A DNA stretch of 43,454 bases from a virus (Duplodnaviria > Heunggongvirae > Uroviricota > Caudoviricetes): IMG/VR virus record IMGVR_UViG_3300031760_000016, positions 1 through 43,454 of that record. One strand, 5' to 3'. Position 1 is the first letter of the stretch, and each line of letters begins with the position of its first letter. Positions 1,245-12,181 of this stretch are shown here, in pieces. The position numbers and the translations under genes are program-made. The notes beneath the pieces are model-generated. The model made no database searches and had not been told where the DNA came from. It saw only the letters and a list, made by a program, of their open reading frames with translations.

Positions 1245-2288
1245 AATTAGCTTTATCTAACTGTTCTCGTTCCGAGTAATCGGTTCGCAAAAACACCTAT
1301 TGAATTGCCGGGACACCCCAAGAGCCATATGCGCTACAACGTGGCCATGAAATGGGCGAGCGTGAAAGCGGCGAAAGCAGAAAGAAGCATATGGATGGCA
1401 TACGGTTAAATCCTAAGTGCTGATAAACGGGCAATCGGCAGCCAAGCCTTGAACAGAGGAAGGTTCAACGACTATCCCGCAAGGGAGTACGCTGCAAGCG
1501 ATTGGCAGCGGAAGTGGTAGGCATCCGTATGGGTGAAGATATAGTCTGATCTCTGCCGAACAGGCAGAGGAGCATTATGCTCGCGATGGGGGTAGCGCCC
1601 TACATATATTGCAGTACATGGATTGTAAATGGGTGAGGTGGTTTTATACGGAAGATTTGACAGGTCGCAGATTTGGTCGATGGACAGTGATTAGTCGCGC
1701 AACGGAAATAACAAGACGTCCTGTGTGGAATTGTAAGTGCGATTGTGGCACAGAAAAGAAGGTACGCGGTAGCACCTTAATAAGTGGCGAGTCACAGTCG
1801 TGTGGTTGTCTTCAAAAGGAACAAGTGGGGGACAGGGCGAGAAAACATGGTGGCTTTGGCACGCGGCTATATGCCATACGGAACAGTATGAGGCAGAGAT
1901 GTAACAATCCAAATCATCATGCTTATTCCAATTACGGTGGTCGCGGGATCACGATTTGTGCAGAGTGGGAGGATTATGCCGCATTTAAAGAGTGGGCGAT
2001 TGGTGCCGGCTATGATGAGGATGCGGCTCGCGGTGAATACACACTTGATCGCATTGATGTCGATAAGGGGTATTCGCCAGATAACTGCAGATTCGTTGAT
2101 ATGAGGCAGCAAGCCAATAACCGTCGCGTGACGATAGTCGTAGAACACAATGGAGAAAAACATCCGTTGACTGAGTGGGCTCAGATTCTGGGTGTTGAAT
2201 ATACCACATTGTGGAGGCACTACAAACAAGGTACTTCTGTACTTAATTAAAGTGATAATACTGCAATATAGTATCGTAAACACATGTG
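1245..2288 (+). mobile_element. Group I intron (1044 nt) in the RNA polymerase gene
   Basis: Core motifs present: GAATTGCCGG (1302), GGCAATCGGCAGCC, CAACGACTA (1466-1474), AAGATATAGTC (1536-1546). P7 pairs GACTA/TAGTC. P1 has U1244·G1263 flanked by AGAA/TTCT. Terminal G is 2288. P10 pairs TTTATCTA (1252-1259) with exon TAGATAAA (2293-2300). Splicing gives in-frame QQN|TIDKTKG. Confidence 0.92.
1648..2250 (+). CDS. Intron-encoded HNH-type homing endonuclease (start uncertain: SD-backed ACG 1648, or upstream TTG 1609 / ATG 1618)
   Basis: DLTGRRFGRWTV..WNCKCDCG..SCGC N-terminus, YGGRGITIC, TLDRIDVDKGYSPDNCRF motif. The ORF lies downstream of P7/P9 inside the intron. Confidence 0.85.
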   Translation, partial: TEDLTGRRFGRWTVISRATEITRRPVWNCKCDCGTEKKVRGSTLISGESQSCGCLQKEQVGDRARKHGGFGTRLYAIRNSMRQRCNNPNHHAYSNYGGRGITICAEWEDYAAFKEWAIGAGYDEDAARGEYTLDRIDVDKGYSPDNCRFVDMRQQANNRRVTIVVEHNGEKHPLTEWAQILGVEYTTLWRHYKQGTSVLN

Positions 2289-3137
2289 ACTATAGATAAA
2301 ACCAAGGGAATCATCGCCAAGCCCATGCCCAGATGCTGGCATGACAGGATGGCTTTGCATCGCCCGGACAGTGACGACCCGGAAGAGCTGGCACGGTGGG
2401 AATTGAACTGCCGCATTGTAGCGGACAAGAAGCCGTACTTCATGCGGTACATCTACCCGCAGCTCATGAGGGATTACAACAATTACATAAACACCGCGAA
2501 CGAAAAGGCGTTGAGCGAGCACCGGCTGTCAATTGACGAGATGCTGGCCATGCCGCCTGATGAACTGACCGAGGAACAGCGCACGTGTCTCCGCTATTAC
2601 CAGGCGAAGATGCCGGTGGGGAATCACGACTGTGTGATGAACAGGATCTGCCGCAAGGTGGAGGCTGCGTTTGGTAACGGCATTGCGGAGCCTGATGAGC
2701 CGTTTGACTACACGGTCATGCGGAGTAACATTGGCTATTCGTCCTACACCTATTACGCGGTTGAGCGTTTGTTCAAGCAGTACCTTCAGAAATTGAAGAG
2801 GTTTGCGATGGACAAGAACAACATTGTATCCACGCAGGATGAACCGGTGGATTACCGCGCATCGCTGCTCGCGTTCTTTGTGCGTGAGGTGGCGCTGGTT
2901 TGTAACAACAGTTTCCAGATGGCTGACATCATCCTGGATCTGGCGTACCGGCGTAATGGCACCAAGCAGTTCGCCTGGGATATGGTTTCGCATGAGATCA
3001 TTTATAACCTGCTCATGAGTCGCGGGTGCAAATTGTCCTTTCCGCGTGCTGACCCGGATGGCGACATTGAATTTATGGGTGAGCGGTATTCGATGACGCA
3101 AATGGAGGTGGACGCTGATGGATATTATTCTGAATGA
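2289..3137 (+). CDS. yonO: YonO-like RNA polymerase, exon 2 (282 aa)
   Basis: Continues the frame of exon 1 after intron removal. No SD precedes the GTG at 2286, which is formed by the last three intron bases. Confidence 0.82.
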   Translation, partial: TIDKTKGIIAKPMPRCWHDRMALHRPDSDDPEELARWELNCRIVADKKPYFMRYIYPQLMRDYNNYINTANEKALSEHRLSIDEMLAMPPDELTEEQRTCLRYYQAKMPVGNHDCVMNRICRKVEAAFGNGIAEPDEPFDYTVMRSNIGYSSYTYYAVERLFKQYLQKLKRFAMDKNNIVSTQDEPVDYRASLLAFFVREVALVCNNSFQMADIILDLAYRRNGTKQFAWDMVSHEIIYNLLMSRGCKLSFPRADPDGDIEFMGERYSMTQMEVDADGYYSE

Positions 3138-3864
3138 GCGCAACTGGATGAATGAAGCGCTTGAGACGCTCTCGCTCGGAAAGAATCCGTACGAGACGAT
3201 TGGGCGGTATGCGCGTGTGATGCACGCGGACGGTGTGCCGAAGGACGTGATGGAGCGAAGGATCGAGGAGTTCCTGCTTCGCTGTGACTCACGGGTAAAC
3301 CTGGTCATATGGCAGGATGCCATCAAGAGGGCTATTGCCAGAGCCGGCAAGTACCCCATCGCTGAGGTCGATGGGGTATGGCTCACCGAGGGCGAGCTCA
3401 ACACGATCAGCAAGATTGAGAGCAAGATGCAGCGCAAACTGCTATTCACCCTGGTGTGTCTGGCAAAGTTCAAGATGGCGGTCAATCCGGACGCCGCGGG
3501 CTGGGTGAACTACGGCTACAAGGATATATGTAACCTTGCAAACATAACGATCAGTTCGAAGCGACGTGCGCTGCTGATCAACGACCTGTACCGGGCGGGG
3601 TATATTTCACTGAGCAAGCGGATCGACAACACAAGTATACATATTGACATTCTTGACGACAGTACGACCAACAGCCTGTTTGTGTCGGATTTCCGCAATC
3701 TTGGCAACCGTTATCTGATGCACTGCGGCGAGAAGTTCTTTGAGTGCCAGTCGTGCGGCATTGTCATCCACCGTACAGCCAATCATCAGACGTTCTGCAG
3801 GCAGTGTGCCGAGGACAGACACAGGCAATTGGCGAACGAGCAATACAAGCGGTCAATTGCGTAA
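3118..3864 (+). CDS. Uncharacterised 248-aa protein, probable winged-helix plus C-terminal Zn ribbon
   Basis: SD GGAGGTG upstream, and it overlaps the RNAP stop. Contains a helix-turn-helix/wing-like segment (YKDICNLANITISSKRRALLINDLYRAGYISL) and CQSC…CRQC. Confidence 0.7.
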   Translation: MDIILNERNWMNEALETLSLGKNPYETIGRYARVMHADGVPKDVMERRIEEFLLRCDSRVNLVIWQDAIKRAIARAGKYPIAEVDGVWLTEGELNTISKIESKMQRKLLFTLVCLAKFKMAVNPDAAGWVNYGYKDICNLANITISSKRRALLINDLYRAGYISLSKRIDNTSIHIDILDDSTTNSLFVSDFRNLGNRYLMHCGEKFFECQSCGIVIHRTANHQTFCRQCAEDRHRQLANEQYKRSIA

Positions 3865-6902: not shown

Positions 6903-7951
6903 TGCCTAGAGTCAGTAAAGTCAAAAAGATAACTTCGCGGCCAGGTGATGTAAAGCCTGACCGCGAAATGCCAAGTGCGTTCTTTTGTTCGCGATGCGGG
7001 AAGAAGTACAAGAAGCAAGTGGGCAATTTCCCGGCATCGAAGAGCCCGCTCAATAAGGGCAATGGCTACTATATGACCATTTGCAACCATTGCCTTGAAG
7101 ACTTGTTTGACCACTACAAAGCGGCGCTCGGCGGCGACGAAAAGGCTGCCATGCGCCGCATATGTTTGAAGCTGGATATTTACTGGAACGAAGAGATCTA
7201 TGGCCTTGTCAGCCGGACGAACACTAGCGCCTCACGTATAAAGTCGTACATCAGCAGGACGAACCTGGTGAAGTTTACAGGGAAGACGTATGACGATACG
7301 CTGGACGAAGAGAGCATATATCTGCGCCCTGTTAGCATCGAGGAGATGCGTGCCGTCGAGGACGATGAGGACGCGAAGAACGCTGGTCTGCCGACTACAT
7401 CTATAGATGTTGAGACGGTGCTGTTTTGGGGAAGCGGCTTTACTGAGGATAATTATCACGAGCTCAATAACAGGTATGAGTATTGGACGCGTGACTTGCA
7501 GAAGCCTCTGCCCACTGTTGAGGAAGCGCTGTATAAGCAGGTCTGTCTGCAGGAGTTCGTCATCAACCGCAATATTGCTGCCGGCAAGAGTTCACCACAA
7601 GACCAGAAGGCTCTGAGTGAACTGTTGGGCAACTTGAACATCAAGCCTAGCCAGAAGGCCAAGGAGGATGAATCCGCAGAGTTTGAGGAAACGCCGATGG
7701 GCGTGTGGATCAAGCGCTGGGAGGATAAGCTGCCCGTCCCTGAGTATCACGAGAAGGCGGGGGAGAAGTCCCTTATCAAGTACATTACCACTTGGTTCTA
7801 CGGGCATACAGCCAAGTCGCTCGGCATCCGCAATATGTATTCGCAGGTGTATGAGGATGAGATTGAGCGGTACAGGGTGACGAAGCCGGAGTTCGAGGAA
7901 GAGAGCGATGATGACATCCTCGCCGATCTGGTTGGCGGTGATGAAGAGTGA
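6902..7951 (+). CDS. Conserved phage protein (YonG-like position) with N-terminal Cys4 motif; candidate terminase small subunit
   Basis: CSRC…CNHC. Coupled to HU (TAATG overlap) and to terminase (GTGA overlap). Confidence 0.6.
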   Translation: MPRVSKVKKITSRPGDVKPDREMPSAFFCSRCGKKYKKQVGNFPASKSPLNKGNGYYMTICNHCLEDLFDHYKAALGGDEKAAMRRICLKLDIYWNEEIYGLVSRTNTSASRIKSYISRTNLVKFTGKTYDDTLDEESIYLRPVSIEEMRAVEDDEDAKNAGLPTTSIDVETVLFWGSGFTEDNYHELNNRYEYWTRDLQKPLPTVEEALYKQVCLQEFVINRNIAAGKSSPQDQKALSELLGNLNIKPSQKAKEDESAEFEETPMGVWIKRWEDKLPVPEYHEKAGEKSLIKYITTWFYGHTAKSLGIRNMYSQVYEDEIERYRVTKPEFEEESDDDILADLVGGDEE

Positions 7952-9711: not shown

Positions 9712-10779
9712 GTGGAGAAGAAGATTGTTGAAACTCCGCGTGACCTGTCGTCATTGTCGCCGGACGATGTATGGCAGTTCAAAGCGCCTGAGAGGTTTGC
9801 AGCCATCAACAAGATGATTCTGAGAGACCTCAACGGCAATCCAACCGCTCCCAGTTTCTACCTGTATACACGTGACCAGATCGCCACGTATATCAAGGAT
9901 CCGTACCGCTACGAGAAGCAGCTTCGCAACGCTGTGATCTACATGTATGCGGCCAGCCCGCACTTCAGGCGGCTGATCCAGTATTTTGTGTCTCTGTCGG
10001 ATATGGCCTTCGTGGTTTCACCCTACAAGGTGGATACGGAGACTGCCAACGAAAAGACGCTGGGCAGGAACTACCATCGCGTGCTCAATCTGCTGGAGTC
10101 TATGGATTTGAAGAACGCGGGGGAGCACATGCTGACTGTCTGCCTGCGAGAGGACGTGTTCTACGGAACCATTCGCGAGACGAGCGACAGCGTGATTATT
10201 CAGCAGCTGCCGTCTAACTACTGCGCGATTTCCACAGTGGAAGACAACGTGCTGAATGTGACATTTGATTTTTCCTATTTTGACGCCAATTCTCAGTATC
10301 TGCCGTATTATCCTGAGGAATTTGCTACGAAATACCGCCTTTACCAGAAGGACATGGTGAACAGCAAATGGCAGGAACTGGATTCGCCCAACTCATTTGC
10401 CATCAAGGCGAATAAGGACATTCTCAACTACGCGGTACCGCCGTTTGTTGGCATCCTGCGCGAGCTCTTTGACCTTGAGGACTACAAGGGTCTGCGGGCT
10501 ACCAAGGAGACCATTGAGAATTACATGCTGCTTGTGATGCAGCTTGGTGTGGACGATGACGGCAACTGGACTATGGACTTGGATAAGGCCAAGAAGTTCT
10601 TTAACAATCTGACGAATGTGTTGCCAGAGGAGATTGGCGCGGTGCTGTCGCCAATGCCGATTAACAAGATCGGTTTTGAGCGGACGCATCCGGAAGCCGT
10701 GAGTACGGTTGGCGACGCGGAGCAGGAGCTGTTTACGGCAGCTGGTGTTTCGAGTCTGCTGTTCAATAACGCGAAGGCT
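9712..10779 (+). CDS. Portal protein, exon 1 (356 aa)
   Basis: Directly follows terminase. Coding-like sequence ends at …NNAKA, where intron motifs begin. Confidence 0.8.
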
Positions 10780-11752
10780 AAACAGTTGGTCGCTTGCGCC
10801 GTAAGGCGCTTGACAAACTACCTCTTGAATTGCTGGAAAACCCTTAGAGCCACATGTGCTACAGCATAGCGATGAGACGCGCAGGTGCGAATGCGGAAAA
10901 ACATGTGGATTGGGCGATCAGCAGCCAAGCTCTGATGAGGAGAAGGTTCAACGACTATCCCGGCGGGGAGTAGGACGAGAGTCCGAAGTGGGAGGCACCC
11001 TACATGGGTGAAGATATAGTCTGCTCTCTGCGGAAACGCAGAGGACGGCGATGGCCGTCTATTTTACGATGATGAAGAAAAGGAGTGCTATATGGTAAAG
11101 CCAAGAAAGGATTTAGTTGGAGAAGTGTTTTCACAATTAACAGTTATAGAGCAAGCTGAGGATTATGTTTCCACAGATGGCAAGCACCATGCTCAGTGGC
11201 TGTGCAGATGTAGTTGTGGGAAGATGTGCGTAGCTTCGGCTTCAAATTTGAGAACTGGTAATACCAAGTCATGCGGGCATATAGTTAAGGATCATAGTGT
11301 CAGGCATGGTGGGCGGCACACCAGGTTATATTCAATTTGGACGAATATGAAGGACAGATGTTATAATCCTAATACTGATACATATAACAGTTATGGTAGG
11401 CGCGGGATTACAGTATGTGAGGAATGGAAAAATGATTTTGGTGTTTTTCGCGATTGGGCGTTAGAGAATGGTTACGACGACTCATTGACGATCGATAGGA
11501 TTGATAATGATGGGAACTATTGTCCTGAGAATTGCAGGTGGGTTGACGCAAAGACGCAAGCAAATAATCGCAGGTCTAGTGTTTATGTAACTGTTGATGG
11601 TATCACTAGATCATTAGCCGCATGGGCAGACGAGCTGGGTAAATCAAGATCCATTTTCCATGCTAGGGCAAAGCTTTATCATACATCTGTTGAAGAACAA
11701 GTTGAATACCTGGCCAGAATGGCCAAACAATCATCGTAAAAAAAACATATGG
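10780..11752 (+). mobile_element. Group I intron (973 nt) in the portal gene
   Basis: GAATTGCTGG, GGCGATCAGCAGCC, CAACGACTA, AAGATATAGTC (11011-11021). P7 pairs GACTA 10953-57 with TAGTC 11017-21. P1 has U10779·G10788. Terminal G is 11752. Splicing gives in-frame NNAKA|SANALLLSIKADQ. Confidence 0.9.
11092..11739 (+). CDS. Intron-encoded HNH-type homing endonuclease
   Basis: SD AAGGAG and ATG. DLVGE.F..LTV, WLCRCSCG, TRLYSIW.NMK.RC, TIDRIDNDGNYCPENCRW. Confidence 0.9.
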   Translation: MVKPRKDLVGEVFSQLTVIEQAEDYVSTDGKHHAQWLCRCSCGKMCVASASNLRTGNTKSCGHIVKDHSVRHGGRHTRLYSIWTNMKDRCYNPNTDTYNSYGRRGITVCEEWKNDFGVFRDWALENGYDDSLTIDRIDNDGNYCPENCRWVDAKTQANNRRSSVYVTVDGITRSLAAWADELGKSRSIFHARAKLYHTSVEEQVEYLARMAKQSS

Positions 11753-12181
11753 TCTGCAAATGCGCTCCTTTTGTCCATCAAGGCTGATCAGGAGCTCACG
11801 TATAGCATCGTTAAGAGCATTGAGACGATGCTGAACAGGTTTATCCACCGGCATGGTTACGGCAAGTATTTCAAGGTGAATTTGCTGGACTGCTCAATCT
11901 ATACGCGCAAAGAGGTTGGGGACGCTCTTATCAAAGCAGCCACCTATGGACTGCCTACGATCAGCTATTATGCCGCGTCGCAGGGCATCAGCCAGATGCA
12001 GCTTGATGGGCTGAATTTCCTGGAGGACAAGATTCTGAACTTGAAGGAACGGCTGCGGCCGTTGCAGAGTTCCGCAACGCAGTCCTCAGTGGAGAGCACT
12101 GGCGAAGCTGGTCGCCCGGAGAGCGATGTGGGTGAGTTGACGGATGCCGGCGAGCAAACGAGGGAAAGGGGCGAGGAGTAA
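11753..12181 (+). CDS. Portal protein, exon 2 (142 aa; spliced product about 498 aa)
   Basis: In frame with exon 1 after splicing. GC and codon style return to those of exon 1. Confidence 0.8.
   Translation, partial: SANALLLSIKADQELTYSIVKSIETMLNRFIHRHGYGKYFKVNLLDCSIYTRKEVGDALIKAATYGLPTISYYAASQGISQMQLDGLNFLEDKILNLKERLRPLQSSATQSSVESTGEAGRPESDVGELTDAGEQTRERGEE

Follow-up and report, generated by a model that had tools for sequence, protein, structure and literature searches.

We analysed a 43,454-nt stretch of DNA from a cattle-gut phage of the class Caudoviricetes (the window), which begins at base 1 of a 107,454-bp IMG/VR phage record (IMGVR_UViG_3300031760_000016) rated 91% complete, and found that the coding sequence of its YonO-family RNA polymerase is interrupted by a 1,044-nt group I intron (positions 1245–2288, + strand, as are all features of the polymerase gene and its intron described below). 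We put the probability at about 90% that this element is an IA-type mobile group I intron, selfish and near-neutral. The phage carries paralogous introns, the alleles of its relatives are mostly uninterrupted and the intron bears a putative homing-endonuclease gene, which together argue that it is an optional selfish element.

We scanned the window with all Rfam models and found two matches to the group I model RF00028 (gathering score 50), at 1243–1569 and 10769–11043, of which the first covers the whole model (1–253) with 73.2 bits (E = 7.8e-17). The intron boundaries follow from U1244 and G2288, from the P1 and P10 pairings and from the collinear alignment of homologues that have no intron. 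The P1 hairpin (1240–1267) pairs 1240–1250 with the internal guide sequence at 1257–1267 and places a U1244·G1263 pair at the 5′ splice site. The cmscan alignment assigns P2, P3–P9, an enlarged P5 arm and P7.1/P7.2 to the ribozyme core (1268–1569), with P7 formed by 1470–1475 and 1541–1546 and P9 by 1551–1569; the presence of P7.1/P7.2 is an IA-type feature. The unconstrained minimum free energy (MFE) fold of the intron, calculated with the loop of its open reading frame (ORF) deleted, recovered the two P1 helices (AGAAUA/UGUUCU and UUAG/CUAA) together with P2, the large P5 arm, P6, P7.1/P7.2, P8, P9 and a P9.1 hairpin. An RNAalifold consensus of four related introns (the polymerase, portal and DnaB introns of the window phage and one, unannotated, from Enterocloster phage CB473P1) likewise recovered P4–P9, with 19 of its 63 pairs kept through double (compensatory) changes.

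Beyond the core, a 12-bp helix with 100% complementarity (1605–1616 with 2259–2270), found independently by an inverted-repeat search and in the MFE fold, loops out the ORF and returns the intron's 3′ end to the core; it is extended by another 6 bp (1583–1588 with 2272–2277). The P10 strand in exon 2 (2293–2300) forms eight perfect base pairs with 1252–1259, and the repeat search extended this complementarity to 13 nt at 85% (1247–1259 with 2293–2305). At the 3′ splice site, no G other than the terminal (omega) G2288 yields a junction that is both collinear and in frame. We also observed that 14 nt inside the endonuclease ORF (2133–2146) are 93% complementary to the region of the P7 5′ strand (1463–1476, GTTCAACGACTATC) and that exon 2 opens with a repeat of the P7 5′ strand (G|ACUAUA); both may reflect chance or an alternative pairing.

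Joining position 1244 to 2289 yields a protein that reads ...RIQCGQLYQQN|TIDKTKGIIAKPMP..., with a predicted spliced nucleotide junction of ...CAACAGAAU|ACUAUAGAU.... We compared this product with intron-less homologues. With the protein of Enterocloster phage PMBT24 (831 aa), the alignment spans 662 residues (E = 2e-167) and is gap-free at the junction, where PMBT24 reads ...RILCGQLFQQN ELDKLKGIIAKDMP...; exon 2 corresponds to residues 593–822 of that protein. All 80 IMG/VR homologues compared (80/80) cross the junction in a single gap-free high-scoring segment pair with the motif CGQL[FY]QQNxIDKxKGI, and the intron-less allele of the homologue L013 reads CGQLYQQNAIDK around the insertion site. 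The profile phrog_35857 is collinear over both exons (exon 1 residues 345–414 match profile positions 3–72; exon 2 residues 2–274 match 74–345). QQN|TIDK is the sole collinear, in-frame junction with a U before the 5′ site and a G before the 3′ site, and from these alignments we infer that the polymerase intron is spliced. We considered an intein or a frameshift in place of an intron; both are ruled out by the ribozyme core and by the stop codons that every frame of the insert has close to the junction.

The interrupted gene occupies the first part of the window, where open frames run from the record end to 1250 and from 2286 to 3137, with a 213-codon ORF (1609–2250) between them. Exon 1 (3–1244) has 414 codons and is cut off at its 5′ end by the contig end, while exon 2 (2289–3137) contributes 282 codons (2289–3134) and the stop. 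The second intron codon is an in-frame TAG (1248–1250) that ends translation of the unspliced mRNA. By tblastn, exon 1 matches SPbeta yonO with E = 3e-23 (26% identity over 380 aa), Enterocloster phage PMBT24 at 44% identity, and proteins of Clostridium phage c-st and Enterocloster phages at 44–46% identity; the blastp E-value of the host protein against SPbeta YonO is 2.8e-28. Exon 1 also matches the Pfam RdRP family PF05183 (31.6 bits; cut-off 23.8) and the profiles phrog_25339 and phrog_8308. Its catalytic Asp triad, D-K-D-G-D (963–977), corresponds in the alignment to CDFDGD in PMBT24 and FDNDGD in SPbeta YonO; it is uninterrupted here and is a second intron site in relatives. In SPbeta YonO, the triad is essential and catalytic, and the enzyme transcribes the late operon (Forrest et al. 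2017, PMC5467207).

We used an alignment of 35 sequences to model the structure of the intron-less homologue L013 (916 aa, 52% identical to the window protein, which itself lacks its N-terminus). It has a predicted local distance difference test score (pLDDT) of 87.2 and a predicted template modelling score (pTM) of 0.80. Its best PDB matches are QDE-1 (7y7t; E = 2e-17, template modelling (TM) score 0.51) and RDR2 (E about 1e-17, TM about 0.5), followed by the phage proteins P74 gp62 / P32 gp64 and crAss gp66 and by the β′ subunit of bacterial multi-subunit RNA polymerases. By proxy of this model, the window polymerase would have the two double-psi beta-barrel fold in one chain. We assign the host gene to the YonO/QDE-1-type family of two-barrel, single-subunit RNA polymerases. 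A long helix of the model (residues 620–643), which may be bridge-helix-like, has the interrupted motif at its C-terminal end, about 90 residues past the triad.

An earlier note on this DNA, made from the letters alone, had proposed a full group I core at 1245–2288, a P1 with a U·G splice-site pair, an 8-bp P10, a junction that restores QQN|TIDKTKG in a YonO-type polymerase, and an unspliced mRNA that stops at the TAG and loses 282 C-terminal residues. The covariance-model match bears out the core, the unconstrained fold recovers the P1 pair and the eight P10 pairs stand as described; the stop and the truncation are read directly from the sequence. The gap-free alignments to PMBT24 and to all 80 IMG/VR homologues supply the collinearity check of the junction, and the yonO match, PF05183 and the aligned triad uphold the identity of the host gene.

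We found that the polymerase intron has siblings in the same phage. Across the whole genome, three RF00028 matches exceed the cut-off and two are weaker; those outside the window lie on the − strand at 72979–73258, 65440–65628 and 64723–64861, and one of them (82.2 bits) is in the gene for a DnaB-like helicase. The portal-gene intron (core 10769–11043, extending to ~11760; RF00028, 85.8 bits) carries a paralogous HNH-type ORF (11092–11739) and separates two halves of the portal profile phrog_2739 (9712–10866, profile positions 48–357; 11660–12178, profile positions 359–497). The gene for the large subunit of ribonucleotide reductase (RNR) contains an intron with a LAGLIDADG ORF. At least four group I introns are therefore present, interrupting the genes for the RNA polymerase, the portal, the DnaB-like helicase and the RNR large subunit. 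Counted by alignment column, the core of the polymerase intron shares about 69% identity with the paralogous introns of this genome.

We investigated how often the same motif is interrupted elsewhere by scanning IMG/VR DNA for IxCGQx[FY]QQN, which gave at least 110 evaluable alleles. Among the matches listed, 100 of 110 alleles are uninterrupted, five are split after xI and five after xID, and none (0/110) is split directly after QQN, the point used by the window intron (N|T); hotspot introns therein occupy roughly one allele in eleven (about 9%), 5–9 nt from the window site. In one IMG/VR relative (L015), the split falls inside the Ile codon (AU|A). The window insertion point is thus an additional site in a known hotspot, which is its only particular feature.

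The public genomes of the Bacillus phages vB_BsuS-Goe14 and Goe11 (where the gene is annotated as yonO_1/yonO_2), of CB473P1 and CB473P3, and of c-st have insertions in the same host gene family. We located these intervening sequences at 2026–3152 of locus L003 (CB473P1), 2345–2771 and 3060–3524 of L004 (CB473P3), 5000–5316 of L005 (c-st) and 4153–5442 of L011 (Goe14). Goe14, CB473P1 and CB473P3 share the interrupted motif of the window intron (QQNxIDK): Goe14 yonO is split at TID|FAK by an insertion with a GIY-YIG-type ORF, and CB473P1 and CB473P3 yonO are split after ...NELD. In CB473P3 and c-st, a split lies within the triad (DxD|GD). Unlike the window intron, these public insertions are found 9 nt downstream (after xID) or inside DxD|GD; most have endonuclease ORFs, of the canonical HNH (phrog_99) or GIY-YIG type, that are placed earlier in the intron, and their cores have no blastn similarity detectable to the window core.

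The public insertions nevertheless show the hallmarks of group I introns, including an ACGACUA...AUAGUC P7, a U before the 5′ site and a G before the 3′ site. RF00028 gave no match in the yonO insertions of CB473P1, CB473P3, c-st, Goe14 or L015, whether the threshold was the gathering score or E<=1; the P7 hallmarks are visible by eye, and we attribute these misses to the sensitivity limit of the model and do not count them as counter-evidence. The introns in Goe14, CB473P1, CB473P3 and c-st are AT-rich, contain large insertions and are all unannotated. The earlier note knew of no described case in a yonO gene. This holds in that we found no paper describing yonO introns in the searchable literature, while the implied uniqueness does not, given the unannotated yonO introns of Goe14, CB473P1, CB473P3 and c-st. 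A blastn search with the window core found one matching place per CB473 record, in another gene. The unannotated core in the packaging region of CB457/CB473 (OP172755.1 8426–8685; L112 2501–2760) is 79% identical to the window core and adjoins an I-TevI-like gene annotated as 'intron-associated endonuclease 1'.

The ORF carried by the polymerase intron (1609–2250, 213 codons) putatively encodes an HNH-type homing endonuclease. It matches PHROGs annotated as HNH endonucleases (phrog_374, 1.7e-67; phrog_3377, 6.8e-47) and shares 42% identity with its counterpart in the portal intron. Relatives of the ORF with up to 50% identity are encoded at eleven IMG/VR loci, none of which (0/11) is in a yonO gene. 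The start of the ORF is uncertain, with TTG 1609, ATG 1618 or a later codon as candidates. In a ~98% variant allele from a bovine-gut metagenome, ATG 1618 is changed to ATA and GTG 1633 to GTA; because both are altered, neither is a likely start, and translation may possibly begin at TTG 1609, within the 12-bp helix, or at a later TTG.

The intron-containing allele occurs in nature. We found it in two bovine-gut metagenomes from two studies, in one of them as the ~98% variant on a 47-kb contig. In those metagenomes, the summed contig depth at 1418–1491, the conserved P6–P7 core, is about 5–15x that of the flanks, and the assemblies break at 1461–1467. We attribute the rise in depth to the conserved core being common to many co-occurring introns in the samples. 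The 1244–2289 joint of an intron-less allele was not listed in the two DNA metagenomes, which is no evidence of its absence as these are contig data.

We infer the steps of splicing from group I chemistry. A ribosome translating exon 1 of the pre-mRNA would halt at the TAG (1248–1250). The intron would then fold so that P1 presents the U1244·G1263 pair, and free guanosine would attack after U1244. P10 (1252–1259 with 2293–2300) and the terminal G2288 would place exon 2, and ligation of the exons (CAG-AAU|ACU-AUA) would restore the invariant motif CGQLYQQN|TIDKTKGI. The HNH-type endonuclease encoded by the ORF that is looped out after P9 would presumably cut or nick the intron-less alleles of co-infecting relatives, and cutting at this conserved site would spread the intron by homing.

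Several observations weigh against this account. P10 begins 4 nt inside exon 2 and not at the splice site. A search for RNA sequencing runs containing the gene listed none; one metatranscriptome with a small share of it gave no junction-spanning contig, only a 151-nt contig of exon 1 at depth 2, and its other pieces are conserved intron core that comes from other introns. Among the matches listed, IMG/VR holds no second copy of the window intron at the same site outside its own lineage. The endonuclease ORF has no Pfam match (E<=0.1) and no match to NCBIfam or to a PDB sequence, and the place taken by the catalytic His (D-H) in canonical HNH relatives is occupied by an Arg (LDRID, the D-R-I-D motif). 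The nuclease activity of its product, and hence present-day mobility, is therefore putative. Finally, the record contains only part of the RNA polymerase gene: about 180–220 N-terminal codons are absent because the window begins at the record's first base. Circular permutation was considered as the source of the missing N-terminus and rejected, as the record has no terminal repeat and its other contig end is a tandem array. The Arg variant is common to the ORFs of the polymerase and portal introns and to three IMG/VR relatives, while the yonO-intron ORFs of L015 and CB473P1 keep the canonical D-H; because D-R-I-D is conserved across the subfamily, we read it as a variant and not as decay.

Several other explanations would give the intron a function or deny that it is spliced. 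The one that survives best makes it a competitive weapon, whose endonuclease would cut the polymerase genes of intron-less co-infecting phages in interference competition, as in the jumbo phage PhiPA3, where a phage RNA polymerase subunit gene provides the precedent (PMC12908238). The target motif is invariant across relatives, most of these are intron-less, and many related phages share the same rumen/gut habitat. The endonuclease activity and its target site are predictions, Arg stands in for the canonical catalytic His, and interference adds to selfish homing without replacing it. We regard this as an unlikely explanation when taken for itself; as an addition to homing, a role like that in PhiPA3 is plausible by analogy.

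A far less probable explanation, advanced in the earlier note, is that splicing acts as a regulatory gate, tuned to the host's physiology through GTP, Mg2+ or the translation state, which would time the synthesis of the polymerase and thereby late transcription. In its favour, an unspliced mRNA gives no full polymerase, since the TAG (1248–1250) removes 282 residues, and the polymerase gene lies just upstream of packaging and structural genes. The splicing of T4 introns in vivo has been reported to depend on translation and on the growth state, which we counted in favour of a gate. SPbeta YonO does transcribe the late operon (PMC5467207). Against these points, the intron is absent from 100 of 110 alleles among the matches listed and from all 80 of the closest full-length relatives (80/80); as most alleles are without it, late expression in this phage group needs no intron. 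Similar introns in the portal gene, which is a late gene, and in two replication genes fit random invasion of conserved sites, and the sequence yielded no regulatory feature. With an optional intron that has its own putative mobility gene and siblings in essential genes (portal, DnaB and RNR), and with no regulatory feature, the gate is unsupported. We also hold it highly doubtful that rate-limiting, host-sensitive splicing licenses the late programme while the endonuclease disables intron-less competitors, with the cluster of insertions within 9 nt as the trace of an arms race.

The least probable alternative is a dead insertion or a split gene, in which splicing has been lost and the polymerase is a pseudogene or assembles from two polypeptides: it could draw on GTG 2286–2288, which would start an ORF reading MTIDK..., on the c-st annotators' listing of the N- and C-terminal YonO halves as separate genes, and on splicing being deduced from sequence, but the core helices, U·G pair, terminal G and P10 are all intact, both exons are open and conserved, the GTG at 2286 has no Shine-Dalgarno-like sequence before it, the break would cut an invariant helix motif, and what lies between the two c-st halves bears group I hallmarks.

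As a selfish intron, the element resembles the classical group I introns of phages, which include those of T4 td, nrdB and nrdD, the SPO1/SP82 DNA polymerase (with the HNH nickases I-HmuI/II), Twort, and SPbeta bnrdE and bnrdF (PMC8270828; reference lists in PMC12908238). Like these, it has an IA-type core with P7.1/P7.2, an early in-frame stop and an ORF looped out from a peripheral helix; it interrupts the most conserved codons of an essential gene, is one of several in its genome and has neighbouring alternative sites in relatives. Unlike them, its host gene is a YonO-type polymerase and not a gene of DNA metabolism, and its endonuclease belongs to a D-R-I-D subfamily that has no Pfam match. 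In PhiPA3, too, the gene for a phage-encoded RNA polymerase of the two-barrel superfamily is interrupted by a mobile group I intron that brings an endonuclease with it (PMC12908238); this case differs in that the polymerase is multi-subunit and the phage a nucleus-forming Pseudomonas phage, and in that the competitive function is experimental there, while the window intron is known from its sequence. The window polymerase shares with SPbeta YonO a single-chain two-barrel architecture, the DxDGD triad and a gene placed beside late/packaging genes; the two are 26% identical, SPbeta yonO is uninterrupted, and the window polymerase is closer to the ~830–920-aa proteins of Clostridia phages.

Selfish introns of this kind are common in the yonO family, where they go unannotated, and the window intron is an ordinary example. 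In public phage genomes, a gene of the family often appears as two or three separate "hypothetical" ORFs, and we attribute the split annotation to unrecognised introns and to RF00028 missing the AT-rich ones. In this little-studied enzyme, the introns pick out the two places under the strongest constraint, namely the Asp triad and the end of the QQNxIDKxKG helix, which is useful for structure-function work on YonO-type polymerases. Different introns with different endonuclease types within 9 nt of each other also make a convenient natural system for homing-site competition. The window intron leaves the knowledge of group I introns themselves unchanged, and a regulatory role is without support.

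The gene's surroundings add several minor observations. The polymerase gene is followed by packaging and structural genes, with the terminase at 7948 and the portal at 9712, and this synteny is the one line of support for late-gene transcription by the window polymerase. In c-st, a RAGATH-18 RNA match (64.3 bits; L005 9293–9353) lies downstream of the yonO region. In the window, a gene for a 248-aa protein of unknown function (3118–3864, + strand; phrog_30716) overlaps the polymerase stop codon. The Cys-rich C-terminus of its product weakly resembles the tail of SPbeta YonO (E = 0.009 over 32 aa), and the equivalent gene in c-st was labelled 'YonO-homolog (C-ter only)' by its annotators. These weak resemblances suggest that, in the clade of the window phage, the YonO tail may be a separate subunit encoded by a downstream gene.

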